From IMG/VR virus record IMGVR_UViG_3300034110_000988: a stretch of 57,257 nt of DNA; one strand, written 5' to 3'. Below, piece by piece: positions 3,234 to 53,726 of this stretch (position 1 is the stretch's first letter; every line of letters begins with the position of its first letter). This DNA comes from an uncultured virus (IMG/VR IMGVR_UViG_3300034110_000988) (Duplodnaviria > Heunggongvirae > Uroviricota > Caudoviricetes). Below the pieces are notes generated by a model, which saw nothing but the letters and a program-made list of their open reading frames with translations, searched no databases and was not told the DNA's origin. The position numbers and the translations under genes are program-made.

Positions 3234-3257
3234 AAAAGAGGCCGAAGCCTCTTTTTT
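3232..3257. terminator. bidirectional terminator between convergent genes
   Basis: A6-GAGGC-CGAA-GCCTC-T6. Confidence 0.9.
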
Positions 3258-3600
3258 AATGTCCACTTGTTTTTGAAAACAGATTGATGATGATAACGCC
3301 AGTGACAATGAAAACAATGCCTAACATCGCTGGCAGGTCTATTTTCTGGTTAAATACCACAACGCCTATAATCGCAGTGGCAACAATACCTACACCAGCC
3401 CATATCGCATAGGCAATGCCTAATGGAACCACTTTAAGCGATTGAGATAGGCAATAGAAGGACGCAACGAAGAACACCGCCATAAGTGCCGTAGGAATGA
3501 GTTTGCTGAATTGTTCACTCTTAGTGAGGAATGTGATTCCTATGAGTTCGCAGACGATTGCGGTTGTTAAATAAAGGTAAGCGGCATATATTGGGTTCAT
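3256..3600 (-). CDS. SMR family (EmrE/Qac-like) small multidrug transporter
   Basis: 114 aa, four hydrophobic segments, membrane Glu in AIVCELIG, KSEQFSK and AYAIWAGVG motifs. Confidence 0.93.
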   Translation of the reverse strand: MNPIYAAYLYLTTAIVCELIGITFLTKSEQFSKLIPTALMAVFFVASFYCLSQSLKVVPLGIAYAIWAGVGIVATAIIGVVVFNQKIDLPAMLGIVFIVTGVIIINLFSKTSGH

Positions 3601-9229: not shown

Positions 9230-10630
9230 ATGCGTAAACATCAATTCAAATTTTCAGAAGTCACTGCTGTTCGTGAAATTCCAAAAGCTGTTGAAGTTAT
9301 TGTCAGAACTTATAAATCCACCGAAGATGGCCCTATTGTTCATGAGTCCATTCCTGTTGCTATCCATCCTTTCCTTAATGATGAAAATTTCAGTGCTCAA
9401 CATGAGTCTGTTCTCTATGTTATGCTGCATATTAAAGAAAATGACAAAACCATTGCTAAAAAAGTAACTGCAGCTATCGCTAGCCTTCCAAAGCATATCA
9501 CCAAAGTTTCGGTACTGGCTGATGTGGGTTGCTTGAAACAGTTCACCGCTGGGTTGCTGGTGGCTACTGCTAATCAATGGTCTGCTAAATCTGAACAGAA
9601 ATCGAAAGAACCCAAAGATGTCACTGTCATTTACGAAGGTGATGAACCACTAGGTGAACTGAATGACCAGATTGCGTTGGGTAAAGCTCTGGCTTTTGCT
9701 CAGGCTACCAAAATTCGACTTATCGAAATGCCTTCCAATTATCTCACTCCATCAGCTTTGCTTGAAGAAGCCAGAACCATCAGGGATTCCAGCCAAAAGG
9801 TCACGCTTTCCTATGTCAGTGGCAAAGACTTGAAAGAAGAAGGTTACGGCTCTCTTTACGCTGTCTCCAAAGGTTCTGTTGAAGAAGGCCATTTGATCAC
9901 GCTTGAATACAATGGTGGTGAGAAAGGCGAAGCCCCTATTGTGCTGGTTGGTAAAGGTTTGACTTTCGACTCAGGTGGTATTTCTATTAAGCCTTCCCGT
10001 GGCATGGGCCGCATGAAAGGTGACATGGGTGGTGCGGCTACGGTTTTGGCTTCATTGATTTACGCGATTGAAACCGATGTGAAGAAAAATATTGTGGCGA
10101 TCATAGCTACGTGTGAAAACATGCCAGACGCTGCTGCTCTCAAACCGGGTGATGTGATTACTGCCAAGAATGGCAAAACCATTGAAGTGGAAGACACTGA
10201 CGCCGAAGGTCGTTTGGTACTGGCTGACGCTCTTTGTCATGCTCAAACTTTCAATGGTGCAGTTACCATTGATTTTGCTACCCTAACAGGTGCTGTTATT
10301 GCGGCTATCGGTCATGTCCACACTGGCTTGTTCACTGAAAACGATGAGTTGGCTGAAACCATCCTTACGGCTGGTAAAGCTTCTGGTGATACGGCGTGGC
10401 GTTTGCCTTTGGGTGATGAGTATAATCACTTCCTAGAAAGCTCAGTGGCTGACCTCAACAACCTTTGCTTGGGTCAAGGTGCGGGTGCAACCAACGGTGC
10501 TATCTTCTTGCGTGAGTTCGCTCCCAAAGAAAACTGGATTCACCTTGATATCGCAGGCACCAGTGATCATAACGGTGGTACCGGACGCCCAGTTGGTTTG
10601 ATGTCGCATTTCTTGGACAGTTTCCGCTAA
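9230..10630 (+). CDS. pepA: M17 family leucyl aminopeptidase (PepA/PepB-like)
   Basis: LVGKGLTFDSGGISIKP, MKGDMGG, DTDAEGRLVLAD, ATLTGA, WIHLDIAG motifs. Confidence 0.95.
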   Translation: MRKHQFKFSEVTAVREIPKAVEVIVRTYKSTEDGPIVHESIPVAIHPFLNDENFSAQHESVLYVMLHIKENDKTIAKKVTAAIASLPKHITKVSVLADVGCLKQFTAGLLVATANQWSAKSEQKSKEPKDVTVIYEGDEPLGELNDQIALGKALAFAQATKIRLIEMPSNYLTPSALLEEARTIRDSSQKVTLSYVSGKDLKEEGYGSLYAVSKGSVEEGHLITLEYNGGEKGEAPIVLVGKGLTFDSGGISIKPSRGMGRMKGDMGGAATVLASLIYAIETDVKKNIVAIIATCENMPDAAALKPGDVITAKNGKTIEVEDTDAEGRLVLADALCHAQTFNGAVTIDFATLTGAVIAAIGHVHTGLFTENDELAETILTAGKASGDTAWRLPLGDEYNHFLESSVADLNNLCLGQGAGATNGAIFLREFAPKENWIHLDIAGTSDHNGGTGRPVGLMSHFLDSFR

Positions 10631-18453: not shown

Positions 18454-18459
18454 AAAGAG

Positions 18460-18488
18460 TTGACGATTTAGGTGTTTTCATCTATAAT
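18460..18488 (+). promoter_or_regulatory. sigma70-type promoter driving a non-coding tRNA-like unit
   Basis: TTGACG-17 nt-TATAAT. Confidence 0.85.
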
Positions 18489-18497
18489 GGTCATCAC

Positions 18498-18600
18498 AAG
18501 TTAGGGGATACCTTAACTTAATGGCGGTAAAAAGATGTGGATTATTTTAAGCTTCTCATAATCTGTATCGAGGGGCGTAGGAGAAATTTTACGCTTTGTC
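18498..18600 (+). ncRNA. structured leader of the tRNA-like transcript
   Basis: Hairpins AAGTTAGGG/CCTTAACTT, GATGTGGATTAT/ATAATCTGTATC, GCGTAGG/TTTACGC. Confidence 0.5.
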
Positions 18601-18608
18601 TGTTCCAC

Positions 18609-18681
18609 AGATGTGTATATCAGTCGGTAGATAATCTCTCTAACAGAGAGAAGGTCGCAGGTTCAATTCCTGTCACTGATG
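18609..18681 (+). tRNA. aberrant tRNA-like gene, anticodon AAC (Val-like), mismatched acceptor stem, no CCA
   Basis: TATC/GATA D stem, TCTCT-CTAACAG-AGAGA anticodon arm, GCAGG-TTCAATT-CCTGT T arm. Confidence 0.7.
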
Positions 18682-18709
18682 TGGATTTAGGCCGAGAGGT
18701 CAGGACGTA

Positions 18710-18783
18710 TACGGTGTATATCAGCGGCCTAGATAATTTCTCTAATCGAGAAAAGGACGTAGGTTCAAATCCTACCACTGTAT
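18710..18783 (+). tRNA. aberrant tRNA-like gene, anticodon AAT (Ile-like), C37, no CCA
   Basis: TACGGTG/CACTGTA acceptor, TATC/GATA D stem, TTTCT-CTAATCG-AGAAA, GTAGG-TTCAAAT-CCTAC. Confidence 0.75.
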
Positions 18784-18793
18784 TGCAAGAACC

Positions 18794-18822
18794 AAAAAGA
18801 CTTCTTCGGAAGTCTTTTTTTT
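18794..18822 (+). terminator. terminator of tRNA-like unit
   Basis: AAAAAGACTTC-TTCG-GAAGTCTTTTTTTT. Confidence 0.9.
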
Positions 18823-18890
18823 GCTTTATTTTAAATATTGATGTATAATTATGTTGAAATTTATCCCTTAAATATCGTGGAGTTTTACTC

Positions 18891-19058
18891 ATGAATTCAA
18901 ATCTTCGGTTGGTGTTCGTCATTATTTTACTGGTCGCTTTCACGGCCTATTTTTCTATTAAAGGAACTTTCCATGTCGTTAGTATTAATTGCGACAAAAA
19001 TGGCACTATCTTTATTGATGATGTTGAATACAAATGCGTAGCCGTTAAAAAAGAATAA
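18891..19058 (+). CDS. small membrane-anchored protein, 55 aa, two Cys (not in ORF track)
   Basis: GGAG SD; MNSNLRLVFVIILLVAFTAYF...CDKNG...YKCVAVKKE. Confidence 0.75.
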   Translation: MNSNLRLVFVIILLVAFTAYFSIKGTFHVVSINCDKNGTIFIDDVEYKCVAVKKE

Positions 19059-19127
19059 TTAATTCTTTAGTAATCAGCTTGGATAGTGTATAATCTATTT
19101 TTTATTAATTTAAAATTGGAGATTCCC

Positions 19128-28659: not shown

Positions 28660-28805
28660 GACATAAAGCAGCTTTAACCCAATGGCCTTCGGGCCACATT
28701 AACAGCCTAACACTGATTAGGCACCGCAACAAAAATACTATTTGAAATTTCAAATACACAAAAACCCATTAAATTGGGTTTTTTTGTTTTCTGTTCAAAA
28801 AAAGC

Positions 28806-28834
28806 TTTACACATTTGCTACTTTTCGCTATACT
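28806..28834 (+). promoter_or_regulatory. sigma70-type promoter of repeated cassette copy 1
   Basis: TTTACA-17 nt-TATACT. Confidence 0.85.
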
Positions 28835-28869
28835 TCTTCTACACAAACAGAAGGTAACGGAGAAACACA

Positions 28870-29010
28870 ATGTCACAAGTAGCACTCACCAAAGAGCAAG
28901 AAATCGATGCAGCTTACGCCCAAATGAAGGCTCAGGAACAAAAGGATAAAGATTCGGCTTGGAAGCAAGCTGACAAAGAACTGGGTCATCAGCAGAAGTC
29001 CTCGGTTTAA
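28870..29010 (+). CDS. micro-protein copy 1, 46 aa (not in ORF track)
   Basis: MSQVALTKEQEIDAAYAQMKAQEQKDKDSAWKQADKELGHQQKSSV; GGAG SD. Confidence 0.9.
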   Translation: MSQVALTKEQEIDAAYAQMKAQEQKDKDSAWKQADKELGHQQKSSV

Positions 29011-29103
29011 TACTGATCACAAAGAAAGCGGCCTTCAGGTCGCTTTTTTCTTGCCTAAAATCTATGTTTTTGGTATAATAGTCCTCTAATTCAGGAGTTT
29101 TCT

Positions 29104-38520: not shown

Positions 38521-38561
38521 AAATCGTTGACAACAGCTCTCATTTAAGCTAATATAGTCTC

Positions 38562-38658
38562 AACAGCGTTACATCCTCTCATGATTTTAGATCATTGACG
38601 ATGTAGCCATTATGCTTCAAACACCTAAACCCTTATTGGACGCTCTAAGGGTTTTTTT
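38562..38658 (+). ncRNA. putative sRNA cassette 1
   Basis: TTGACA-17-TAATAT promoter (38527-38555), GTTACATC/GATGTAGC hairpin, terminator AAACCCTTA...TAAGGGTTT. Confidence 0.6.
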
Positions 38659-38717
38659 GTATCCAAAATTCAACAAAATTTCTTGCTATTTTTTATCCGT
38701 TGGTCTATACTAGTCTT

Positions 38718-38816
38718 AATCGAGCCAGCTCCCATGTTGTTAACTAGATTTTCAATACGTGTTGGCCTTCTGCAACAGCAAATCAAACCCTTCTAGGACG
38801 CTTTAAGGGTTTTTTT
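38718..38816 (+). ncRNA. putative sRNA cassette 2, paralogous architecture
   Basis: TTGCTA-17-TATACT promoter (38683-38711), GCCAGC/GTTGGC hairpin, terminator AAACCCTT...AAGGGTTT. Confidence 0.6.
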
Positions 38817-38904
38817 GTGCCTGAAATTTGATAAATTTATTGTAATAGATAACTAATTCCGCTATAATCAATCCAAGAAAACTTATCTTATTGAGGATTT
38901 ACCC

Positions 38905-39312
38905 ATGCCATTTGCTTACTCTGCTGCTTACCTGTCTTATGGTTCCGAGCGTATGTTTAAAGAGCTTGGAGTGAACAAAGACAAACTCCACATGACTACT
39001 TGTTTTGACACTACGGCTACCATTAAGCCTGAAAACAATATTGATATTGTTCACAAAACGGCTGTCATTGCTAACATTACTGAATGGGAAACTCCAAGTG
39101 GTTTGTATGTGGTGGCTGAACTGACTGATTGTGGTTGGAGTGCTGTCATGAATGCTCATTACAAGGCTCTTGGTGCCATTGAAGACCTTCCACACAATCC
39201 TCATATCACGCTCATGAAATCGTCGTCGCCAGAGCTGGTTGAGAAACTTAAAGTTCTGGTTGGTCGTGAAGTTGTCTTTAATGACCACGCCATTAAGGTG
39301 AAAGGTCTTTAA
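38905..39312 (+). CDS. acb1: 2H phosphoesterase, Acb1 / T4 gp57B-like anti-CBASS nuclease
   Basis: Two HxT motifs (KLHMTTCF, HNPHITL) with EWETPSG and YKALGA segments matching the T4 gp57B pattern. Confidence 0.8.
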   Translation: MPFAYSAAYLSYGSERMFKELGVNKDKLHMTTCFDTTATIKPENNIDIVHKTAVIANITEWETPSGLYVVAELTDCGWSAVMNAHYKALGAIEDLPHNPHITLMKSSSPELVEKLKVLVGREVVFNDHAIKVKGL

Positions 39313-39902: not shown

Positions 39903-40017
39903 AACAAAAACAATACAGAAATAGAAAAGTAGATTAAGCAGCTTCGGCTGCTTTTTTCTTTACATTTTTGGCATTATTTGGTATAATAGATCTCACAAAC
40001 CAATGATGAGGTGTCAC

Positions 40018-40134
40018 ATGAAAAATATCAACGCAACGATTGCACAAATTGTGAAAACTTGCAAATCGGTTAAAAAAGCACTGACCCCTGTTCATGACAC
40101 CAGCTACAAATTCAGCCATAATTATTTCGAGTAA
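40018..40134 (+). CDS. basic micro-protein, 38 aa (not in ORF track)
   Basis: TGGTATAAT promoter, GAGGTG SD; MKNINATIAQIVKTCKSVKK... Confidence 0.7.
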   Translation: MKNINATIAQIVKTCKSVKKALTPVHDTSYKFSHNYFE

Positions 40135-40143
40135 ACTATCCGT

Positions 40144-40350
40144 ATGAAACTAAAACCAAACTTTATACGAACTATCGACTATAAGACGTTTGAAAATGCA
40201 CATTTTGATGTGAACGTGATGTTTATTTCAAGTCGTAAACCCGTCGATGGACAAGTTTCGATTATTGTTGTTGACGGTATTGAGCATCATGTATTTACTT
40301 CCGAATTGAAGGAATTTGTAAGCCTTCCAAATTCAAGGTTGTTATCATGA
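40144..40350 (+). CDS. small hypothetical protein
   Basis: ORF coupled to next gene (ATGA). Confidence 0.7.
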   Translation: MKLKPNFIRTIDYKTFENAHFDVNVMFISSRKPVDGQVSIIVVDGIEHHVFTSELKEFVSLPNSRLLS

Positions 40351-41162
40351 TTTCTTCATCGAAATCACTCACTAATGCTTATCGACAGCATGGCGAAGAC
40401 CTCAATAGCTCTGCAGAACTTGTAGAGCTTCGTCATATGCGGAACATTCAGGCTGACTGTCTGTTCTATAACTCCATCCGTGCTAGCCTTCCATCGTCTG
40501 CTAATAATTTTGAATCCACAACGCCTGTCGCGTTTTTGAACAGAAATGAACTGTACTTGCCTGCCATCCAACTGTTCAGTGACATTCAAAAAACAGATTT
40601 TTCTAATATTCAAAACATTCTGGATGTGTTGGTTACCTCGGGTGTTGAGTGTTGTATTTTCGCAGAAGGTGATAAACAGCTTAAAAGTTACTTGGACATG
40701 AAACATGTGATCTTTAACAACATGAAGTCAGTCTATGATGTTGCTATTCGGCATGATGGCTTAATTCGCATGGACAGCCACGAAAAAAGAAAACGAATGC
40801 TCAATTTGCATTTAAGTTTTGAGCTGGGTGTTTGTGCAGAAGGTGCTTTTGTTCAAACCAAGTTTACTGTTCCAACGTTTTATAAATCGTTTCCTATTTC
40901 TATTTATGAACTCAATGGAAAGTTTTACGTTTCGGTACCGAAAGAGTCTACCGAAGTTGGTCACCCTGAGAATGAAACCTTTATTTTTGAAAGTGCATCA
41001 CCACAAGCTGATATTGCTACTTTGGTACGGCATCGGTATCGACATCGTATTTTTTATTCAACATTTAAGCGGCATTTTGATAAATACTATGAAGATGATA
41101 TTCAATTTGAAGGTATTGACATTTGGTCTACTGTTCAGCTAATGGACGCCATGAAAATCTAG
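40347..41162 (+). CDS. hypothetical protein, C-terminal tag family
   Basis: Ends DIWSTVQLMDAMKI. Confidence 0.8.
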   Translation: MISSSKSLTNAYRQHGEDLNSSAELVELRHMRNIQADCLFYNSIRASLPSSANNFESTTPVAFLNRNELYLPAIQLFSDIQKTDFSNIQNILDVLVTSGVECCIFAEGDKQLKSYLDMKHVIFNNMKSVYDVAIRHDGLIRMDSHEKRKRMLNLHLSFELGVCAEGAFVQTKFTVPTFYKSFPISIYELNGKFYVSVPKESTEVGHPENETFIFESASPQADIATLVRHRYRHRIFYSTFKRHFDKYYEDDIQFEGIDIWSTVQLMDAMKI

Positions 41163-41222
41163 TCAGCCTTGACTAAAACCTTAATTTCATGTAGAATTGT
41201 CAGACACATCAGGAGTATATCA

Positions 41223-41705
41223 ATGCAAGAATTGGCTTCAGCTATTAAAGAATTCATGTTGAAACAAGGCGAAACCATTTCGGTGGCGGAAAGCTTGACC
41301 AGTGGTTATCTGCAGGCTCATATGTCTGCTATCGCAGGATCTTCAAAGTATTTTGTAGGTGGTATCACTGCCTACAATATCGACATCAAAGTCAAGTTTT
41401 TGAACGTTGATCGAGCCAACGCCGAAACATGCGATTGTGTCAGCGAACAAACGGTTGTTGAAATGGCAAAAGGTGTCGTTGAACTGTTTGATACAGATTA
41501 TGGCATTGCAACCACTGGTTATGTGGATAGTGATAATACAAAAGGCATGCCACACGCCCATTTGGCGATTTACTCTCGTAAAAAACAAAAGCTTCATAGC
41601 TTTTTCATGACGTGCAATCACTTGACCGAAAGACCAGCAATTCAGGCATATTTTGCTAGACTTGCGACCGAAAAATTGGTAAAATTCTTAACAGTTGACA
41701 TCTAA
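41223..41705 (+). CDS. pncC: CinA C-terminal / PncC (NMN deamidase)-like protein
   Basis: VAESLTSG, GSSKYFVGGITAY, K, VSEQTVVEMAKG, IATTG motifs. Confidence 0.88.
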   Translation: MQELASAIKEFMLKQGETISVAESLTSGYLQAHMSAIAGSSKYFVGGITAYNIDIKVKFLNVDRANAETCDCVSEQTVVEMAKGVVELFDTDYGIATTGYVDSDNTKGMPHAHLAIYSRKKQKLHSFFMTCNHLTERPAIQAYFARLATEKLVKFLTVDI

Positions 41706-41729
41706 TCACTTTTAAAAAGGTTCTCTTCA

Positions 41730-42176
41730 ATGCAAACTATCAAAGCCGCAACTAATCAAGAACTCGTTTTGGTTCGTGGTCACTCGGGCAGTGGAAAATC
41801 AACCTTTGCCAGTTCGTTTGTTCCATTTGGTTACAAGCACTTCGAAAACGACAGTTTCTTTGTCGATGAAGATGGCGTTTATAAATTCGATTTCGCTTTC
41901 CATCAGGTAGCCAAAGATGAATGCGTCAAAAAAGCTGTTCAAGCTTTGCTGGATGGTGAATCAGTGGTTGTGAGTAATACTTTTACCAAAATCATCGAAA
42001 TGGATTCGCTTGTCGCTTTTGCGAAAGAACTGGGTATCGACATCCGGGTTTTTGAGATGGAAAACGATTATGAGAACACACACAACGTGCCAGAAGCTGT
42101 AATTGTTGAAAAGAAGGCTGCTTTTGAACCGATTGAGACGGCTTTCAAGGTTAAAGGTGATTATGTAGTCGTTTGA
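41730..42176 (+). CDS. P-loop nucleotide kinase (AAA_33-like)
   Basis: LVRGHSGSGKSTFA, VVVSNTFT, HNVPE. Confidence 0.85.
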   Translation: MQTIKAATNQELVLVRGHSGSGKSTFASSFVPFGYKHFENDSFFVDEDGVYKFDFAFHQVAKDECVKKAVQALLDGESVVVSNTFTKIIEMDSLVAFAKELGIDIRVFEMENDYENTHNVPEAVIVEKKAAFEPIETAFKVKGDYVVV

Positions 42177-42313
42177 CCAGAAACGCTCTAAAAAAGCCTC
42201 ACAGATGTGGGGCTTTTTATTTTCTTCATTTTTGTTACTCGGTGAAAAATGATTGCTAAAAAACTTATTTTTCTGTATAATCACAACATAATCAAACAGA
42301 AGGAAAACCTATC

Positions 42314-42568
42314 ATGATCCGTTTTGCTCAAATCTATCGCAACAATGAAGGTAAATGGTTTCTGCAGATTGCTAAAAAATATGATCTTACCGTAGTCGAT
42401 ACTGCTTGGCAAGATTGTGACAAACTGGGGGCTTCTTGCTCTACGCCTTCGGTGGATATTGAAGACAGCTTGATTCCTTGTGATGATGAAGAACATGCTA
42501 TGATCAAACTGGCTATCCACTATGCCAATGAATACCACAATCATGCAGCCATCAAGTCACCTTACTAA
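42314..42568 (+). CDS. hypothetical protein
   Basis: AAGGA SD, TATAAT promoter. Confidence 0.8.
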   Translation: MIRFAQIYRNNEGKWFLQIAKKYDLTVVDTAWQDCDKLGASCSTPSVDIEDSLIPCDDEEHAMIKLAIHYANEYHNHAAIKSPY

Positions 42569-42594
42569 AAACACATCAACAGTGATTATCAAAC

Positions 42595-43044
42595 ATGGCT
42601 AAGAAGACTAAACCAAAGTTTACCCTTCCAGAACCTCAAAGCGTTGAAGTCTTTCGCTTGGAAACGGTTGATGGTTGTGGTATCTACAAGAGTAAGCCCA
42701 ATACTACTGGCTTTGCTTGGGGATCTGTGACGACGACTGAGGAATCTCTTTGGTGCCAAGTTACCAACAATTTTCAAGACAGCACATTACATCCTAATCC
42801 TTGCCAAGAATTTGGCCTTGAAATGGATTATTGGCCTGAACTTTTTTGCGGTTTTTCAAACTTGGATCAATACCGTAACTGGTTGTTCAATCCTTACTGG
42901 CGTCGAGCTTTTCATGAAAAAGGCGTTAAACTTGTCACCTATAAAGTGCCACGGGATGAAGTTCGATTTGGCCGCAAACAAATCCTTTTCAACAAAAGTA
43001 TGGCGACGAAAGTCAAAGAAGAATCATTGTCGAATTATTTTTAA
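42595..43044 (+). CDS. conserved phage-type protein, possible ADP-ribosyltransferase-like fold
   Basis: VFRLE...GIY...HPNP...CGFSNLDQYRNWL...KQILF; fold call is weak. Confidence 0.6.
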   Translation: MAKKTKPKFTLPEPQSVEVFRLETVDGCGIYKSKPNTTGFAWGSVTTTEESLWCQVTNNFQDSTLHPNPCQEFGLEMDYWPELFCGFSNLDQYRNWLFNPYWRRAFHEKGVKLVTYKVPRDEVRFGRKQILFNKSMATKVKEESLSNYF

Positions 43045-43113
43045 TTATCAGTAAAAAAATGCATAAAGAGCATTTTTATGGTATAATTATTCAAATTATT
43101 GAAGGGGATTCAA

Positions 43114-43602
43114 ATGCCAAATTTTGAAGTCGGTGATGTGGTTATCAACCTGAATCAACTCCACCTTTGGAATAACACCTATCATTCCAAGCGTTTTATT
43201 GAGTCGATGAGGGAGATCGTGACCGCAGTAAATGGCGAACTGTTCACGACTGATCCCCAGCAATCTTTGGATGAACATGTCTCCGATAAAAGCATGTCAG
43301 CCCAACGAATCTTTCGTCAAGAAGATGGCCGTTGTATCGCTGATCCTAGCAGCTTTCGTTACAACCTGACAAAGCACCCAGAAAGCATTCTTTACCGTGT
43401 AAATACTTGCTTTGACGCGGGCTATCAAAAACTCAAAGCAGGTGACAAAGAAGCTATTGATGACCTTGAAGATCAAATTGCAACACTTCAACAAAAATTG
43501 AATGACCTCTATGCTGGTAAACGCCCATTGACTATGAACAAAACCGTTCGTGAACACCATGACGACTGTGTGAAAGCTGTTATGGAAAAATTGAAGGTCT
43601 GA
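43114..43602 (+). CDS. hypothetical protein with coiled-coil C-terminus
   Basis: AAGGGG SD; heptad IDDLEDQIATLQQKLNDL. Confidence 0.8.
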   Translation: MPNFEVGDVVINLNQLHLWNNTYHSKRFIESMREIVTAVNGELFTTDPQQSLDEHVSDKSMSAQRIFRQEDGRCIADPSSFRYNLTKHPESILYRVNTCFDAGYQKLKAGDKEAIDDLEDQIATLQQKLNDLYAGKRPLTMNKTVREHHDDCVKAVMEKLKV

Positions 43603-43662
43603 TTTTTTCAAACAATCATCTATTTTTAAGGAGCTTCGGCTCATTTTTTGTTCAATAAATGT

Positions 43663-43691
43663 TTGACATGAATCTCTACTTGTCGTATAAT
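43663..43691 (+). promoter_or_regulatory. perfect consensus sigma70 promoter
   Basis: TTGACA-17 nt-TATAAT. Confidence 0.92.
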
Positions 43692-43697
43692 TGCTGC

Positions 43698-43980
43698 ATC
43701 CGATACGAGATCTATTCTGTTGTCGTATGGCACATTCTGTTGTCAGTTTTTTTGACATTGGGAGCATTGGGAGGTCTAATGTGCAGACACTCATTCCGCT
43801 GGGCTGGGCCTCGACCAGTGGCGACCGTGAAGGGGAAAACGTCGTTAACTTTCTTAGCGAGAAAGGATCGAAAGACTTCGGCAATTGAGCTAGGTAGCGA
43901 CTGCTCTGCAATCTGACTTGCTCAGATTGTAATATAGAGAAAATTCGCTCACTTATGAGTTTTTTGTATATTACAATCAG
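43698..43980 (+). ncRNA. large multi-hairpin RNA of unknown class
   Basis: GC-richer than flanks, no SD-led ORF, many stems, terminator at ~43990-44029. Confidence 0.7.
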
Positions 43981-44223
43981 CTATCATTTAAAAAAGCCTT
44001 TTTGGTGAAAGCCATTAAGGCTTTTTTTTGTCATTTTTTCTTTGAATTGTCTAAAAGTCTATTCTGGTGGATTTACAAACTTTTGATTTAATGATATTAT
44101 ATACGATCAAAATTCAATCATGACTGCATCTAAAAAACTTAAAAATGATTGAAAAAAAGTGTTGTTCTCTTTGTATATCCTTGCTATAATTCTCCCACAC
44201 CAACCGAAACGGAGTTATACCAG

Positions 44224-44574
44224 ATGACCACTTCCCAAGTAGCTGTTGCCATTGCCGACCGCACTACCGAAGAACTGACCGAAGGGCTTGAAAAACTTCG
44301 TCAACTCATGATTGAAGATTATAATCGGGCAGGTTTCAATCTTGGCTATGATATCGAGTTTGATTTTGGTGCAAAATATATTCGTGTCATCCACACCAAT
44401 GGTAGCGGTAGCCGTAGTTGTGCAGGTTTTGTTTGCTGCGACCGCAAGCATAAACAGTTTCAATTTGGCGATTTGTTGAAATGTGCTTCGTGGAAAGCAC
44501 CCGCAATGAACAAGGCTCGTGGTAGTGTTTTTGAGCTGGAAGGCAAACGCATTGCTTGGACGGGTATTCAGTAA
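44224..44574 (+). CDS. conserved phage protein, tandem paralog 1
   Basis: GAKYIRV...GFV...GDLLKCASWKAPAMNKARG. Confidence 0.85.
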   Translation: MTTSQVAVAIADRTTEELTEGLEKLRQLMIEDYNRAGFNLGYDIEFDFGAKYIRVIHTNGSGSRSCAGFVCCDRKHKQFQFGDLLKCASWKAPAMNKARGSVFELEGKRIAWTGIQ

Positions 44575-44785
44575 GGCTTATCAACTTTACAAACAAAGGG
44601 CTTCGGCCCTTTTTTGATCTTGTCTTTTTTAATTAATAAATCTTTTTTTTGGTGAATTATTGTGGTAAGATAGAGGATCTTTATTTAAAAACTCAAAAAT
44701 GCTTAAAATAAACCATTAAAAATGTTGTTTTTGATGAGTTATCTTGATATAATGGCTCCACACAAACAGAGATGGAGTTACAGCG

Positions 44786-45151
44786 ATGACCACTTCACAA
44801 CCAGTTCAAGCAGTTGTTACTCACGCTGACACCGAAAACAAAACAACTTCTGAACTTCTAGCAGCAATGGAAAAACTTCGCCAGATGATGGTCGAAAACT
44901 ACGGCGAACAATCAGGTCGAATTCAATATGATGTTTATTTTGAGGCTGGTAGCAAATATACTCGGCTCTACTACAAAACCAGTTGCCAAAGTATCTGCCT
45001 TGGTTTTTTTGTAAACACGAAGACTCACAAGAAGTTCCCTTTTGGCACGCTTTTGATGTCAGCCGGTTGGAAAGCACCAGCAGTTAACAAAGCTCGTGGG
45101 AACATCTTTAACCTTGACGCTAAGCCTGTCACTTGGACAGGAATACAATAA
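44786..45151 (+). CDS. conserved phage protein, tandem paralog 2
   Basis: GSKYTRL...GFFV...GTLLMSAGWKAPAVNKARG; both end WTGIQ. Confidence 0.85.
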   Translation: MTTSQPVQAVVTHADTENKTTSELLAAMEKLRQMMVENYGEQSGRIQYDVYFEAGSKYTRLYYKTSCQSICLGFFVNTKTHKKFPFGTLLMSAGWKAPAVNKARGNIFNLDAKPVTWTGIQ

Positions 45152-45272
45152 CAGACAGCAAACAGATAAAATAGAAAGGGCTTCGGCCCTTTTTTCGTTT
45201 ATGTTTAAATTATAGGTAGCATTCTTAATTAATTTATGATATTATTTCCCCAAACATTTCGAGGATTTTTTA

Positions 45273-46493
45273 TTGGACATTTCTAAAATCGCAGAAGACT
45301 TGAAAAAGGTCATGAAAGAGTCTGTTGATCGTCTTAATCTAAAATCTATTGATACCTTTGTAAATAGAGATTATAACATTGATGATGACAATCAATTTTC
45401 TTTTATGACAATCGGACCAATTGAAACTTATTTAATTGCTCACAAAGATGTGAGTGTTATCTATGATTTCTTACAGCTTTCGCCATCGACTATTCAAAAT
45501 ATTGAAAGAACCCGCCAATTTATAACCAACCTTATTCCAGAAACTTTTTATATTCCGACTATCTTTAACAAGATCAAAATTAGATCTGATGAACAAATTG
45601 AATTAACTATTACTGGATATGGCTTGACTGGGTTTAATATTGTTTTTACTGATGGTGTTGTCTCAGTAACGACTCCACATACCAAGAGTCATTCTTACCA
45701 TGTTGAATGTTATGAAGCTCTTGATTTTATTATTAACACTGCAGCCAATCAAATGATACCTTCATTTTTAAAGGGAATTGGCTTCGATTCAGAAGATGAG
45801 CACTCACCAGAAGTGGTTAGGTTTATCAAAAAAACACCAGAAGAACTCTTTCTTGAAAAGAAAACTCATCCTCTTTTTAATTATGTTAAACCTGATGATC
45901 TTATGCGTTTGGTGTGTGATGATTTAAAATTAAACTCAAATGATGTCATGAATTCTTTAAATTATATGGAAGCTGATTCTTTTTTGAATCTTTATATCCC
46001 TAACAATTTAACTTCAATGATGTCTTTGATGGCTCATCACGTCATTAAGATTGATGGAATTAAGCCTAAACTAGATCAATTATTTAGTTTGGTTGTTCTT
46101 TATAATGCCATATTCAATAAAACAACAAAATGCTCTGTGTCATTTACACCTATTCAAAAAAGAGATTTTTTTAAAGGTGGTGATTCTGATAGGTCTTTTT
46201 ATTCCCTTCATGTGGGCGATACATTAGCCATTAAAATTGGTCATAATCTTCTAAAAAAAGACAAAGATAAACATGCTTATGTTGATGATAATAATGATAC
46301 TAAATTTTTAAACTTTGTTTATTTTAAAGATCTCAAAACCTATGATTATAAAGAATACTTCACCAATGATATTGATTTCGTTTATAATGACATATTGAAG
46401 GAATTTCAAAACATGATTAAACAGGTTATCCATAAAGATGACAATTTAATTAGTTTCAAAGATTTGGAAGTCTATAAAATGGCTGTTGTTTAA
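45273..46493 (+). CDS. hypothetical protein related to 4819, C-terminal tag family
   Basis: GAGGA SD with TTG start; LFSLVVLYNAIF; ends KDLEVYKMAVV. Confidence 0.85.
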   Translation: MDISKIAEDLKKVMKESVDRLNLKSIDTFVNRDYNIDDDNQFSFMTIGPIETYLIAHKDVSVIYDFLQLSPSTIQNIERTRQFITNLIPETFYIPTIFNKIKIRSDEQIELTITGYGLTGFNIVFTDGVVSVTTPHTKSHSYHVECYEALDFIINTAANQMIPSFLKGIGFDSEDEHSPEVVRFIKKTPEELFLEKKTHPLFNYVKPDDLMRLVCDDLKLNSNDVMNSLNYMEADSFLNLYIPNNLTSMMSLMAHHVIKIDGIKPKLDQLFSLVVLYNAIFNKTTKCSVSFTPIQKRDFFKGGDSDRSFYSLHVGDTLAIKIGHNLLKKDKDKHAYVDDNNDTKFLNFVYFKDLKTYDYKEYFTNDIDFVYNDILKEFQNMIKQVIHKDDNLISFKDLEVYKMAVV

Positions 46494-46497
46494 TTAA

Positions 46498-46632
46498 CTG
46501 GTTTCTGAACCTTTTATTTCAATAACTTATTTTTGTTGTAAAATTAGAAACAAAATTCAGTCAGATCTCTTGAAGAGTGATGACCCAATTACAGAAAGAC
46601 AACTTGAAGTGTATAAGATGATTATTTTTTGA
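46498..46632 (+). pseudogene. start-less remnant encoding only the C-terminal tag module
   Basis: Open frame ...KIQSDLLKSDDPITERQLEVYKMIIF-stop, similar to the end of 45273. Confidence 0.7.
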
Positions 46633-46657
46633 CTTTTATTGTTTTTCTGTAATACTT

Positions 46658-46757
46658 TAATCATCTACAATTCATGTAGTCTAAAATTCGGCTAACGATA
46701 TGGAATTCCGACACCATAATAATTTCTACACCATATGTAGTCTAAATAGTCGGCAAA
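46658..46757. repeat. two imperfect direct repeats, 61-nt period, each with a CTACA-N5-TGTAG hairpin
   Basis: TCTACAATTCATGTAGTCTAAAATTCGGC and TCTACACCATATGTAGTCTAAATAGTCGGC. Confidence 0.75.
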
Positions 46758-46824
46758 ATAACAGGTAGACATTTTGTGCTTTTTTTTGTATAATACCTAA
46801 CATTCAAAAAAATGGAGTATAAAA

Positions 46825-47142
46825 ATGTCTCAGTTGGCTGAAATCGCAAATCTGAAAGACAAGTCTGATCTCGCAGCATTGCTCAAACAGCCCGGTGTTC
46901 TTATCGATATTGATCGATCTGGTCTTATTACTGCCGAAGAAATGGCGTATTTTCTTAATGAGTTGGCTTCTATCACTGTCGCACAGGAAAAGAAAGAACG
47001 TTTTCTTCATTTCAATCACAAAATTCGCAATAAAGGTTGTGAACTTAAACCACGTCTTTTCAATAAAAAAAGCATTTCTCGTTTTAAGTTGAGCAAAATT
47101 CAACGAAAATATGGGTTTGTTCTGACTGATGGCGAAGGTTGA
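46825..47142 (+). CDS. basic hypothetical protein
   Basis: GGAG SD, TATAAT. Confidence 0.8.
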   Translation: MSQLAEIANLKDKSDLAALLKQPGVLIDIDRSGLITAEEMAYFLNELASITVAQEKKERFLHFNHKIRNKGCELKPRLFNKKSISRFKLSKIQRKYGFVLTDGEG

Positions 47143-47162
47143 TTTTAATTAGGGGATTGATC

Positions 47163-47396
47163 ATGCGTGATTCTATTAAAAAATTGTTTGATTGGAAAAC
47201 CAACCCAGCCAGTGTTTTTTACGTGGCTGTTCCACTGGTCATTATTGCTGTGGGATTGTTGTTTACACAAGCCTATCTGCAGTATAAACTCAATGATGAT
47301 ATTGGCTACTTAGTCATTTTTGGAGTCTTTACAGTGTTGTGTGCTATTGCTGGCTTTCAAATGCGGCGTATTTGGAAAAAAACGTTTAGACGATAA
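47163..47396 (+). CDS. two-TM membrane protein
   Basis: AGGGG SD; two hydrophobic helices. Confidence 0.8.
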   Translation: MRDSIKKLFDWKTNPASVFYVAVPLVIIAVGLLFTQAYLQYKLNDDIGYLVIFGVFTVLCAIAGFQMRRIWKKTFRR

Positions 47397-47450
47397 CCGT
47401 TTAATGTAAAAAAACCAGCTTCTGCTGGTTTTTTATTGTCTATCAAATTG

Positions 47451-48479
47451 TTAGTTTTTTGACTTTACATATATTTCTTTTAAGCTGCTCACATCAAAGT
47501 GTGGAGCGGTTGCATAAGAGAAGCTTGGGCAAATTCTATTTGAACCCGCAATTCCTGCACCACCACAAGGGCCACCATTACCCGCTACAGGCCATAATCC
47601 GAACGTATCTGTCATGTCTGTTGGTCTTTGTCCCGGCCATCCACCTGCTTCAGAGTAAAGCTTAGATGTTCCGTTAGGGGTGTTTACAGAGAACCCGCCT
47701 CCAATGTTTTGACCTTTTGCAAACGTACCGAATGTTTGCCATGCTCCAAACATACTTGTCCATGTTGGGTTAGCATTTTTAACCATCATTGCAGAACTTA
47801 AGTTTACAGAACCACTTGGTAAGACTGGGAATTTTGAGGTATCGTTTGAATAGCTGAGTATTTTTCCGCCTCTCATTGCAACATCTTGGAAGTTACGTTT
47901 TGTTGAACCAGCCGGAAGTTGTACCCAACGACCTACTAATATCCAATTACCACCTGCAGTTGCCATATCAACATAAGCTTTGGCTGTATTTCCCTGACCA
48001 TCAGAAATATCGTATATTCCACTTTGACCAGCGACTGGGTTAACAATCATTAAGTAGCTTGTTGATGTCCCAACGGCTTCTTGTGTATTGGTCAACCCTG
48101 TTGCAATTTTACTATCATTCTCATCGTTATACGCAGAACCTACAGTACGAATTTCACCCGTTGTTTGGTTTTTTTCCTGTTTTATATAACTTTGGTATTG
48201 AATACCTTTACAGTTTGTGGCTGTTTGTGTAAATGTGACATTAATCATTTCGTCTGCTGGCAATGGTGCCCAGTTTGTACAATCATAACGATATTGGGGA
48301 TTTGTCTTTGCTGCATCTGCCCAACCTAATGATTTTGGTTCAATTGACAACCATTCTACTTGTTTAAACTTAACTTCCACTGTTCCCATTATAACTTCAT
48401 ACTTTGCATATGATAGTCCACAAAAAAGAGCAAGAGATGCCATTGATATTAGTTTTATCTTTTTATTGTTCATAATCAT
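47451..48479 (-). CDS. secreted protein: Cys-pair module plus fibrinogen-related C-terminal domain
   Basis: Signal peptide ending SYA; DCTNWAP...FTQTATNCK; SGIYDI...AYVDMATAGGNWILVGR. Confidence 0.8.
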   Translation of the reverse strand: MIMNNKKIKLISMASLALFCGLSYAKYEVIMGTVEVKFKQVEWLSIEPKSLGWADAAKTNPQYRYDCTNWAPLPADEMINVTFTQTATNCKGIQYQSYIKQEKNQTTGEIRTVGSAYNDENDSKIATGLTNTQEAVGTSTSYLMIVNPVAGQSGIYDISDGQGNTAKAYVDMATAGGNWILVGRWVQLPAGSTKRNFQDVAMRGGKILSYSNDTSKFPVLPSGSVNLSSAMMVKNANPTWTSMFGAWQTFGTFAKGQNIGGGFSVNTPNGTSKLYSEAGGWPGQRPTDMTDTFGLWPVAGNGGPCGGAGIAGSNRICPSFSYATAPHFDVSSLKEIYVKSKN

Positions 48480-50320: not shown

Positions 50321-50409
50321 GATGAAGTAAATAGAAGTAAAAAACCAGCTACTTGGGTTTTTATTGTTAAAAAATGATGACTCTATTTTTATTATTTGGA
50401 GATTTTACA

Positions 50410-50994
50410 ATGACCATGCACGCTATCGAACTTCGTAAAGACCTACTGATTTGGGTGGACTTGGAAACGACTGGCTTGGATATCGCTGACAAACTGTCCG
50501 GTGCTCAATACCACAAAATTCTGGAAGTGGGGATTCACATTACCGATTCTAAATTCAACATCATTGATGAGGGCTTTGAAGTCGTTATTCACCATGACGT
50601 TGAAGAAGCCAAAGCCCTGACCAACGATTATGTCCGAGACATGCACATTACCAGTGGCTTGTGGGATCGTGTTGACCAATCGACTGTTTCACTGGAGCAA
50701 GCAGAAGAAATGATGTTGGCCTACATTGCCAAGTTCAACATTTCTCCAAAGTCCAGCCCAATTTGTGGTAATAGCGTCTCGCTGGATCGTAACTTCATCA
50801 TGGCTCAAATGCCAAAGTTTGCTGACGTGCTGCATTACCGTATCATTGATGTCAGCACAATCAAAGAAATCGTGTGGCGGGTTAAACCAGAAGTCGGAGC
50901 GATGGTGAAGAAGCAAGAAAAACATCGTGGCCTTGAAGACATTAAAGAGTCGATTGCCGAATACAAGATTTACGAAGAGTTCTTTTTTCGTTAA
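50410..50994 (+). CDS. orn: oligoribonuclease (DEDDh exonuclease)
   Basis: LIWVDLETTGL, MHITSGL, ICGNSVSLDRNF, LHYRIIDVSTIKE, HRGLEDIKESI. Confidence 0.95.
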   Translation: MTMHAIELRKDLLIWVDLETTGLDIADKLSGAQYHKILEVGIHITDSKFNIIDEGFEVVIHHDVEEAKALTNDYVRDMHITSGLWDRVDQSTVSLEQAEEMMLAYIAKFNISPKSSPICGNSVSLDRNFIMAQMPKFADVLHYRIIDVSTIKEIVWRVKPEVGAMVKKQEKHRGLEDIKESIAEYKIYEEFFFR

Positions 50995-52245: not shown

Positions 52246-52315
52246 CTGTTTGTAGTTCAGTTGGTAGAATCCCGTCTAAAAACGGTGGTCGTGGGTTCAA
52301 GTCCCATCATACAGT
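52246..52315 (+). tRNA. aberrant tRNA-like gene, shortened anticodon arm (AAA after CT), no CCA
   Basis: CTGTTTG/CATACAG acceptor, GTTC-AGTTGGTA-GAAT D arm, CCGT-CTAAAA-ACGG, GTGGG-TTCAAGT-CCCAT. Confidence 0.7.
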
Positions 52316-52506
52316 CGCTTACATATAAAAACCACTTTCTAGTGGTTTTTTTATTCTCTTTTTTTATTATTTAATGATAATTATTCTCATATTTTTTGAC
52401 ATCTTGTGTCAATGTGATAATCTATTCATACTTTAACTCATTAAATGAAACAACTAAGACAATCTAGATTGTGTTATAAACAACTAAACATTAGGAGAAT
52501 TAAATA

Positions 52507-52982: not shown

Positions 52983-53726
52983 ATGACAAAAAAATGTATT
53001 TTAGCGTTAGTTGCTTTGTCCACTTTAAGCAATCTAACATATGCCGATTATCAAATTAGAATTCCTATTCAACATGCTATAAATTTCAATTCTGCCACTT
53101 CAGGTGGTGGGACAGGTGGTGGCAATAACAGTGGAACACCTTCTGCCCCGCCATTTTCATTTACCGATCCCACCGTAGCTGCAGATTATGAAGCCGCTTG
53201 CTCAGGTTTTGCTGGTTACACTAACCCTATTACGAATCCATACAGAAATGAAAACCTAAATTGTGGTAATTATGCTGGCATGGATCTTTCCGGGATCGAG
53301 TTAGATCTTACTGGCTTACGCTTTTCAAATCTCGACGGTGCAAAATTAGATGGCACTAACTTAGGACAAGTCGATCTTCGAAACAGCACGTTAAAAGGGG
53401 CTTCTCTTATTGGTGCCAATCTTAACCCATCATCGTTGGCAGGTTCTGATTTAACAGGGGCTAAATTAAATAATGCTGTCATGACCACGACTGACTTAAA
53501 TGGTACCAATCTCACTAACGCCAACCTTTCTGGTGCTATTTTAACAAATGCTGGTTTTGTTAACACTAATTTAACTAATGCTAATCTTATTGGTGCTGAT
53601 TTGAGCAATACAAGTTTTACCAATGTAGATTTCACTAATATCTTATATGATGCCACCACAAAATGGCCTTCATGGTACACACCACCGCAATCAAGTAACG
53701 GGTATCAGTTCACACCACAGTGGTAA
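52983..53726 (+). CDS. secreted pentapeptide-repeat protein
   Basis: Signal peptide ending TYA, Gly/Ser linker, A(D/N)LXX repeats. Confidence 0.9.
   Translation: MTKKCILALVALSTLSNLTYADYQIRIPIQHAINFNSATSGGGTGGGNNSGTPSAPPFSFTDPTVAADYEAACSGFAGYTNPITNPYRNENLNCGNYAGMDLSGIELDLTGLRFSNLDGAKLDGTNLGQVDLRNSTLKGASLIGANLNPSSLAGSDLTGAKLNNAVMTTTDLNGTNLTNANLSGAILTNAGFVNTNLTNANLIGADLSNTSFTNVDFTNILYDATTKWPSWYTPPQSSNGYQFTPQW

Follow-up and report, generated by a model that had tools for sequence, protein, structure and literature searches.

The 57,257-nucleotide (nt) stretch analyzed here (hereafter the window), which is IMG/VR record IMGVR_UViG_3300034110_000988 of an uncultured virus and a phage-like piece of lake-water DNA, carries at positions 43663-44033 an element that is best explained as a stand-alone gene for a noncoding RNA, located in the early, accessory region of a large phage-like genome. 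We assign this overall explanation a probability of roughly 0.55. The narrower claim, of a genuine and functional noncoding RNA that belongs to no described family, can be made with good confidence. An earlier model-made annotation based on the sequence alone (the first-pass annotation) had proposed an undescribed large noncoding RNA at this place, and this is borne out: no Rfam family matches the element at an E-value of 0.05, its only candidate reading frame is broken in a relative, its core is conserved, and contigs from RNA libraries lie within it. Conservation above the neutral level and a lack of coding potential, as expected of structured noncoding RNAs in general, were both found.

The comparisons rely on two loci from a metagenome search anchored on the upstream 162-amino-acid (aa) protein. 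In the closer relative, L004 (upstream protein 94% identical, on a metagenome contig of 1,859,102 bases), the whole element is present. In the more distant one, L005 (81% identical, 677,834-base metagenome contig), the core is kept and the promoter -10 box and the leader are missing.

Transcription unit, conservation and coding potential

The unit is predicted to begin with a sigma-70-type promoter on the + strand (TTGACA 43663-43668, 17-nt spacer, TATAAT 43686-43691), as the first-pass annotation had recognized. All 12 positions agree with the consensus; this is the sole such match within 42500-45500 and the only perfect one among the 12 near-consensus promoters (at most one mismatch, TTGACA-N16-18-TATAAT) of the window. 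It is kept in L004. Judged by the -10 box, transcription would start ~7 nt past it, near 43698, and a predicted intrinsic terminator would yield a primary transcript of about 335 nt (~43698-44033) instead of the ~290 nt estimated earlier. A separate hairpin and T-run follow the upstream gene, whose end is at 43602. Downstream, both promoter-like sites between the terminator and the next gene, which encodes a DUF7717 protein, are conserved in L004 and L005 (sequence evidence only). Since that gene has its own conserved promoters behind the terminator, the RNA probably forms a separate transcription unit. The previously noted richness in guanine plus cytosine (G+C) was confirmed, with 0.495 over 43700-43899 vs 0.37 for the window. 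The parts of the unit and its immediate surroundings are as follows (SD, Shine-Dalgarno sequence):

43698..43777, + strand: variable 5' leader, 80 nt, folding z-score not exceptional
43703-43728, + strand: leader hairpin, ATACGA 43703 with TCGTAT 43723
43714 and 43734, + strand: leader direct repeat ATTCTGTTGTC
43741-43757, + strand: leader hairpin, TGTCA 43741 with TGACA 43753
43752-43780, + strand: second promoter-like site, TTGACA-17-TCTAAT
43756-43773, + strand: leader tandem CATTGGGAG, two copies
43779..43916, + strand: non-conserved 45-codon frame; GGGAGG (43769-43774), N4, ATG 43779; basic 45-aa peptide
43782..43910, + strand: conserved GC-rich core (~52% G+C, ~130 nt), modelled as closing helix P1 around hairpins P2-P6
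43994..44033, + strand: intrinsic terminator, stem AAAGCCUUUUUGG...CCAUUAAGGCUUU (44007-44025), then U8; conserved in L004 and L005
44072..44223, + strand: the downstream gene's own promoter-like sites, TTTACA-17-TATTAT 44072-44100 and TGCTATAAT just before the SD ACGGAG; not part of the RNA

The leader varies among the relatives. The repeat ATTCTGTTGTC, which the first-pass annotation had singled out near the 5' end, is present twice in the window; its first copy has diverged in L004 and both copies are absent from L005, and chance alone would give about one nearby 11-mer repeat of this kind in 57 kb (own arithmetic). In L005 the first TTGACA is kept and is followed directly by ATGTGCAGAC (corresponding to window position 43779), so that the -10 box is absent. 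Judged from this copy, at least one lineage can do without the 80-nt leader. Only ~255 nt (43778-44033) are common to the window, L004 and L005. An antisense gene on the minus strand was considered and rejected: open reading frame (ORF) 43297-43911 is not kept in L004, and the minus-strand promoter-like sites of L005 are absent from the window.

Identity to the window differs strongly between the segments:

Core 43778-43985: L004 203/208 (97.6%); L005 178/209 (85.2%)
Terminator segment: L004 95.8%; L005 78%
Promoter and leader 43663-43777: L004 88.7%; L005 absent
Intergenic DNA on either side: L004 86.7-86.9%; L005 75-75.9%
Third codon positions of flanking genes: L004 76-82%; L005 55-62%
First and second codon positions of flanking genes: L004 96-100%; L005 75-92%

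By these aligned sequences, the core is conserved about like amino-acid-determining positions, and it is so at two depths of divergence.

Searches for homologues yielded L004 and L005, and no copy from the collections of phages, plasmids, IMG/VR or GTDB. With 43600-44100 or 40000-47900 as query, blastn had no match among 50,697 phage records; tblastn with the upstream protein had none there either, nor did blastn against 72,556 plasmids. In IMG/VR, three DNA patterns from the core had no hits; one of them, a 26-mer, spanned a variable loop and would miss even L004. The upstream protein had two tblastn relatives in one IMG/VR scan, yielding no loci, and none in a second scan; the phrog_1106 neighbour gave 17-residue matches only; and for DUF7717 one scan returned a 10-residue match and another seven loci. 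These seven loci and three further ones (L001-L003) hold no copy of the RNA detectable by blastn or nhmmer. A covariance model built from the core (R1) recovered only the three known copies from 171,458 bases of 19 sources (the window and the loci). Among GTDB genomes a strict pattern had no hits, and a relaxed pattern had 35 loci, none of which aligned past the two seed words by blastn or nhmmer. These 35 were dismissed as chance; six of them were searched with R1, and the best reached 12.1 bits (E 0.68).

The statement of the first-pass annotation that no SD-led ORF is present needs correction, because GGGAGG-N4-ATG opens the 45-codon frame at 43779. In both the window and L004 this frame stays open, the SD-like GGGAGG lies 4 nt ahead of the ATG, and the GC-rich block roughly coincides with it. 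Against a small-protein gene, both L004 substitutions, which are adjacent, change a residue (AG to DW), and L005 lacks the SD and has two 1-nt deletions 55 columns apart, with a stop after 22 codons following one of them. No protein of 24-79 aa in a collection of 5.8 billion clusters resembles the 45-mer, neither Pfam nor PHROGs matches the + strand ORFs 43659-43916 (the same frame) and 43691-43888, and neither strand of the L004 element is covered by an ORF of 80 aa or more. As the sole frame led by a ribosome-binding site is broken in L005, the element is regarded as noncoding and the 45-codon frame is judged not to be a gene.

Part of a 1.5-kb stretch is held by public sequencing runs (20 of 24 listed, from 17 studies), four of which were examined (X15-X18). 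The metatranscriptome X16 contains a 212-nt contig (record 5; 43722-43933) and X18, a metatranscriptome of another study, a 181-nt contig (record 9; 43719-43899). Both lie wholly inside the element and show no differences from the window. They start 3 nt apart with no loose end, and the X15 record continues beyond this point; the shared start is at most a weak hint of either a 5' end or a strain breakpoint. The flanking genes have no cover in X16 and X18, and X17 holds part of the upstream gene plus short low-identity pieces. Since an uncovered part proves nothing, the difference between element and flanks is not used as evidence of abundance. X15, whose kind of library was guessed, holds a diverged relative across 43100-43918; the changes within the element, among the differences listed, are 43670 G>A, 43797 C>T (G-U kept), 43799 C>A and a 1-nt deletion at 43828. 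The contigs demonstrate presence in RNA libraries, not abundance. The earlier description of the RNA as highly expressed has the consensus promoter and these assembled contigs behind it, and contigs cannot give levels.

Rfam 15 contains models for tmRNA, RNase P, the signal recognition particle (SRP) RNA, 6S, GOLLD, ROOL, pRNA, riboswitches and self-cleaving ribozymes. With its 4227 models at gathering thresholds, the whole window yields two tRNAs elsewhere and nothing at the element. In a permissive scan of 43550-44250, all 12 matches were far below threshold (best score 24.8 bits vs a threshold of 59; best E 0.066), comprised leaders, snoRNAs and miRNAs, and fell mostly on the hairpin and terminator part; no riboswitch family matched at an E-value of 10. 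The elements of L004 and L005 had no Rfam match either. A strong Rfam hit, by which the first-pass annotation would have given up novelty, was therefore not obtained in any of the three copies. ARAGORN finds no tRNA or tmRNA at 43663-44033 and places its only calls in the window at 18709-18784 and 52246-52316. The initial failure to recognize tmRNA, RNase P, SRP or 6S RNA is consistent with these scans. Single motifs were also followed up and rejected. A hammerhead-like CUGAUGAG is present only in L004; a CsrA sponge would have just four GGA motifs (by eye); a tRNA-like or tmRNA-like 5' similarity is not supported by ARAGORN; and the RNase P-like GAGAAAGGAUC has no Rfam match. No Pfam match to a reverse transcriptase, TnpB/IscB, IS110 recombinase or Cas protein occurs among 101 ORFs of the window, and without an adjacent partner-enzyme gene the element does not qualify as a retron noncoding RNA, omega-RNA, bridge RNA or tracrRNA. 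Neither full-text searches nor the parts consulted of a review on jumbo phages (PMC13282480) describe this RNA or DUF7717; descriptions elsewhere are possible.

The predicted fold

The + strand of 43697-44030 has a minimum free energy (MFE) of -111.3 kcal/mol (z-score -4.43, 0/100 shuffles as good), compared with -81.9 kcal/mol (z -3.18) for the - strand. Moreover, P2, P4, P6 and P7 of the structure model contain G-U pairs, which are A-C mismatches on the other strand. Because of these pairs and the strand asymmetry of 29 kcal/mol, the + strand is favoured as the RNA. The only thermodynamically exceptional part is the 3' module at 43905-44033 (AU-rich hairpin and terminator), with a z-score of -6.40. 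The model was obtained by RNAalifold from the three sequences (window, L004, L005) and predicts these helices:

43782-43792 with 43899-43910, + strand: P1, closing helix
43796-43802/43815-43821, + strand: P2, hairpin
43822-43828/43839-43844, + strand: P3, hairpin
43849-43855/43859-43865, + strand: P4, hairpin
43869-43872/43877-43880, + strand: P5, hairpin
43881-43886/43893-43898, + strand: P6, hairpin
43908..43930, + strand: alternative hairpin GCAAUCUGA/UCAGAUUGU, overlapping the P1 3' end and the base of P7
43925-43978, + strand: P7, long AU-rich hairpin, ~21 pairs with one mismatch, including the 12-bp stem GATTGTAATATA 43925/TATATTACAATC 43967

The stem motifs on which the first-pass annotation had based a multi-hairpin RNA all exist. 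Besides the two leader hairpins listed above, these are GCATTGG 43764/CTAATGT 43776, CCGCTGG 43796/CCAGTGG 43815, GCGAC 43821/GTCGT 43841, CTTTCT 43849/AGAAAG 43860, the long-range TGCAGA 43782/TCTGCA 43905, and the perfect 12-bp stem within P7. The complementarities are thus real and the transcript as a whole folds better than shuffled sequence, but the excess energy resides in the 3' module only.

The 57 kb contain just three inverted repeats that reach 18 nt with arms no more than 80 nt apart, and P7 is one of them. Its stem carries three changes among the relatives, all of which still pair (UA>UG, GU>AU, CG>UG), and its loop is rewritten and contains an indel. In the model, P7 would be a possible site for a double-strand-specific RNase or a 3' stabilizer. 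Predicted pair probabilities are 0.95-0.99 for this hairpin and 0.74-0.93 for P1. P1 occurs in the MFE folds of all three sequences and P2 in those of L004 and L005, with an altered form in the window; P3-P6 are ambiguous.

A switch-like overlap had been suggested next to P7, and the complementary segments GCAATCTGA 43908/TCAGATTGT 43922 are indeed present. The hairpin at 43908-43930 has -9.6 kcal/mol alone; its stem is invariant in the three sequences, and its loop changes from C to A in L005. Its pair probabilities in context are 0.01-0.06, and nothing beyond the overlapping complementarity supports a switch. None of the overlapping helices (P1, this hairpin, P7) involves the terminator.

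L005 alters 15 of the 78 predicted pairs; 10 of these still pair and 5 break. Two of the changes are two-sided, C-G to U-A in P3 and C-G to A-U beside P7, where ~0.6 double changes would be expected by chance in 78 pairs (own estimate). In the core alignment 97.4% of the cells are paired vs 35-57% when the partners are slid.

Possible mechanism and rival explanations

If the element is a stand-alone RNA gene, the consensus host-type promoter would start a transcript near 43698 that the intrinsic terminator ends near 44033. The selected part would be the ~130-nt GC-rich core, followed by the 21-bp AU-rich hairpin and the terminator, the latter two of which may protect the 3' end or provide a processing site. 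The stable folded RNA might then serve as decoy or scaffold for a protein, of host or phage origin, to which it binds in trans, and would not act as a riboswitch, mRNA or antisense regulator. Such a protein-binding role in trans is a tentative proposal, reached by exclusion and analogy. It is preferred because the RNA is too large and too uniformly conserved for typical seed-based antisense pairing, because no helix of the model competes with the terminator, because the downstream gene probably does not depend on the promoter of the element, and because no partner-enzyme gene lies beside it. Its location in an early region with many candidate host-interaction genes (see below) would suit a role in host interaction.

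Several observations weigh against this picture. Nothing in the data shows binding of a protein. The known genomic copies number three and belong to a single lineage, and the L005 copy lacks ~110 nt that include the -10 box, both ATTCTGTTGTC copies, the TGTCA hairpin and the GGGAGG repeats. No + strand sigma-70-like promoter precedes its core, so that this copy either is expressed by read-through of a good terminator or is decaying. The contigs in RNA libraries, at a depth of ~6, carry no information on strand, ends or level, and such libraries can hold DNA. Energetically, the leader (43698-43781, z -0.72) folds no better than shuffled sequence, and neither does the core (43778-43915, z +0.23, with 118/200 shuffles folding as well; L005 core z -0.15); on energy alone, most of the short stems listed above are therefore not beyond chance. 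Covariation in three sequences is not significant, as the core has one two-sided pair and 162/500 column shuffles are as good. The consensus structure lies 3-10 kcal/mol above the MFE of each sequence. At 43844, the G>A change of L005 is compensated no better in P3 than in a rival GUCGU/CGGC helix, and the X15 change 43799 C>A breaks a P2 pair unless it is compensated among 18 unlisted differences. The multi-hairpin fold of the core is, accordingly, a model compatible with three sequences and not an established structure.

In a bolder and rather unlikely version, the core would be the first of a new class of functional RNAs encoded by viruses. This compact multi-helix RNA, an early product of the host polymerase in an uncultivated phage-like carrier, would either serve counter-defence amid protein counter-defence genes, by neutralizing a host immune or RNA-surveillance protein, or build a multimeric particle. 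Assembly might proceed through the conserved self-complementary UCGA and GAUC loop segments, as in ROOL and GOLLD. With 0.68 and 1.86 Mb, the contigs that carry the relatives reach far above any phage genome known to us (~0.7 Mb); it may be that the carrier is a cellular prophage or island, that the contigs are mis-assembled, or that something unusual is involved.

Alternatively, the transcript could be a base-pairing small RNA, whose conserved single-stranded segments (GAAGGGGAAA, GGAUCGAAAGA) pair with host or phage mRNAs and whose 3' end is of the Hfq type. The stand-alone unit with a rho-independent terminator and U8 tail would suit this function, as would the conserved stretches left unpaired by the model and the presence of other short promoter-terminator units in the window, which are expected of a phage that uses small RNAs. 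However, base-pairing small RNAs usually conserve only a short seed, which ~335 nt with a conserved block of ~130 nt far exceed, and a crude duplex scan against 97 start regions of the window returned only implausible long-range duplexes (artefacts) and no interpretable outlier. Base pairing is thus an unlikely main function.

Slightly less probable still is regulation in cis, in which the element would be a leader, riboswitch or attenuator that responds to a ligand or protein and controls read-through into the pair of DUF7717 genes. Two paralogous genes follow the element directly on the same strand, and the closed multi-helix core resembles an aptamer that is followed by mutually exclusive helices (the P1 3' strand, 43908-43930 and the P7 base). 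The 5' arm of the terminator could also pair upstream, the best duplex (around AGAAAGG) having -13.3 kcal/mol vs -14.7 kcal/mol for the terminator hairpin. However, the alternative hairpin does not touch the terminator and has the low occupancy given above, P7 lacks a U-tract, and the downstream gene has its two conserved promoters 40-190 nt behind the terminator. The absence of Rfam riboswitches also argues against this function, as does a DUF7717 relative (locus L041) that lacks the element within 2.5 kb.

The conserved segment might instead act at the DNA level, for instance in replication or packaging or as a palindrome bound by protein, or it might be a recently exchanged mosaic segment that owes its high identity to recency and not to selection and is transcribed incidentally. 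Such exchange is common among phages, the fold of the core is no stabler than chance, the L005 core has no promoter, and the 22-nt inverted repeat is one of three of that size in the window. Against these points stand the G-U pairs and the strand asymmetry, which favour a + strand RNA, and the substitutions in P7, which keep RNA pairing and include wobbles that would be mismatched in the other strand of a cruciform. The exact framing by a perfect promoter and a terminator, the contigs in two RNA libraries, and the raised conservation against both relatives, at two levels of divergence, likewise make a DNA element or mosaic segment improbable. The least probable explanation is a small-protein gene with long untranslated regions around the 45-aa basic peptide (43779-43916), whose frame L005 does not preserve.

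The stand-alone noncoding RNA gene is thus retained as the best explanation. Should its product be a protein decoy or an assembling RNA, an RNA-based mechanism would be added to the conflict between phage and host; otherwise, the element would still be a clean new family for RNA databases. The combination of noncoding character, purifying selection and occurrence in RNA libraries of two studies makes it worth testing at the bench. Some of its neighbours, in addition, resemble counter-defence genes. On the present evidence, with three copies and no proven fold or host, it ranks as a good candidate, not yet as a discovery.

Genomic setting and comparison with known RNAs

A greedy call yields 104 ORFs in the window, 82 of them on the + strand. 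Family matches were obtained for a minority of the 101 ORFs compared with Pfam and the 71 compared with PHROGs, and most ORFs have no family. The window looks like an early or accessory part of a large phage. Eleven of its 12 near-consensus promoter sites are on the + strand, all with 17-nt spacers, which fits one long gene block read early by the host polymerase. The genes next to the element are:

43114-43602: upstream neighbour ORF, 162 aa, no family
44224-44574 and 44786-45151, + strand: DUF7717 paralogues, 47% identical, each followed by a terminator with a UUCG loop; pair kept in L004 and L005

The DUF7717 relative on L041, a 290-kb IMG/VR viral contig, is 53% identical, and no RNA element was found within 2.5 kb of it. 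Further matches in the window include an HNH endonuclease (PHROG, E 2.6e-50), a trypsin-like protease and two PD-(D/E)XK proteins. Two cell-like genes stand out in the phage-like block, namely an SMR transporter (3256-3600, - strand, E 2e-26) and an M17 leucyl aminopeptidase (9230-10630, + strand, E 9e-107). Candidate host-interaction or counter-defence genes are located at 38905-39312, 41169-42176, 50374-50994 and 52983-53726. The relevant matches are a 2H-type protein (PHROG RNA ligase, E 1.2e-10; Pfam Acb1, E 2.6e-5, below the cut-off), CinA (E 6e-31), an AAA_33 kinase, an RNase_T/oligoribonuclease (Orn)-like exonuclease (E 5e-20) and a pentapeptide-repeat protein (E 3e-26). Around them are numerous family-less ORFs, nearly all on one strand.

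Further features lie in other intergenic regions of the window. Upstream of the Acb1-like gene, 38526-38820 contains two tandem units of ~100 nt as candidates, with promoter-like sites at 38528 (TTGACA-17-TAATAT) and 38683 (TTGCTA-17-TATACT) and near-identical terminators (AAACCCTT..AAGGGTTTTTTTG); folding of this gap has a z-score of -4.29 on the + strand. The intergenic stretch 28660-29103 folds strand-specifically (z -5.28 on + vs -1.05 on -) and has hairpins and a terminator ahead of a short ORF that has an SD and starts at 28871. A cluster of tRNA-like genes (18460-18830) is preceded by a near-consensus promoter at 18460. It includes an Rfam tRNA call at 18613-18676 and the ARAGORN call at 18709-18784, a tRNA-Ile with the unusual anticodon AAT, and the gap 18454-19085 has a z-score of -4.9 on the + strand. 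To the third tRNA (52246-52316) ARAGORN assigned no anticodon.

Few stand-alone structured RNAs of phages have a known job, among them pRNA, tRNAs, RNA anti-CRISPRs and ToxI mimics, and early genes that lack an explanation abound in large uncultivated phages. Like transcription-terminating riboswitches, the element is modelled with a multi-helix domain inside a closing helix, and behind it come overlapping alternative helices and a terminator. In contrast to them, none of its modelled helices competes with the terminator, promoters of its own serve the downstream gene, and no Rfam riboswitch matches. The pRNA of phi29 (RF00044) is a stand-alone multi-helix phage RNA of 120-174 nt that is made from a strong host-type early promoter and is protein-bound. 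The element resembles it as a phage-encoded, predicted multi-helix RNA with a strong host-type early promoter. However, it has no Rfam match and no sign of a packaging role or ring formation, and its genome is large with many family-less ORFs, unlike the small phi29-like genomes. GOLLD and ROOL come from lake-water metagenomes and from phage genomes, where tRNA genes are often nearby, and are structured RNAs of unknown biochemical function. The element shares this origin and the status of a putatively structured RNA without a known function, but those RNAs are two to three times longer or more; the element has no Rfam match to them, its core is not demonstrably ornate, and just three copies are available. 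Species 1 and 2 (rnaC/rnaD) of the large lytic phage T4 are small stable RNAs of unknown function that are made early by the host polymerase and processed from a tRNA cluster. They are comparable as early, host-polymerase-made RNAs of a large phage with an unknown role. The element, in contrast, has its own promoter and terminator, lies ~25 kb from the tRNA cluster at 18.6 kb, and is similar to none of the 50,697 phage records.

6S RNA, bacterial Y RNAs (YrlA) and the adenovirus VA RNA are abundant, stable and structured, and act in trans on a protein. At the thresholds used, the element matches neither 6S nor another Rfam family, its putative multi-branch core contrasts with a long bulged hairpin, and no Ro60/Rsr-like gene occurs among the 101 window ORFs scanned against Pfam. 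These RNAs nevertheless provide the functional analogy behind the preferred mechanism, in which the transcript would act by binding a protein.

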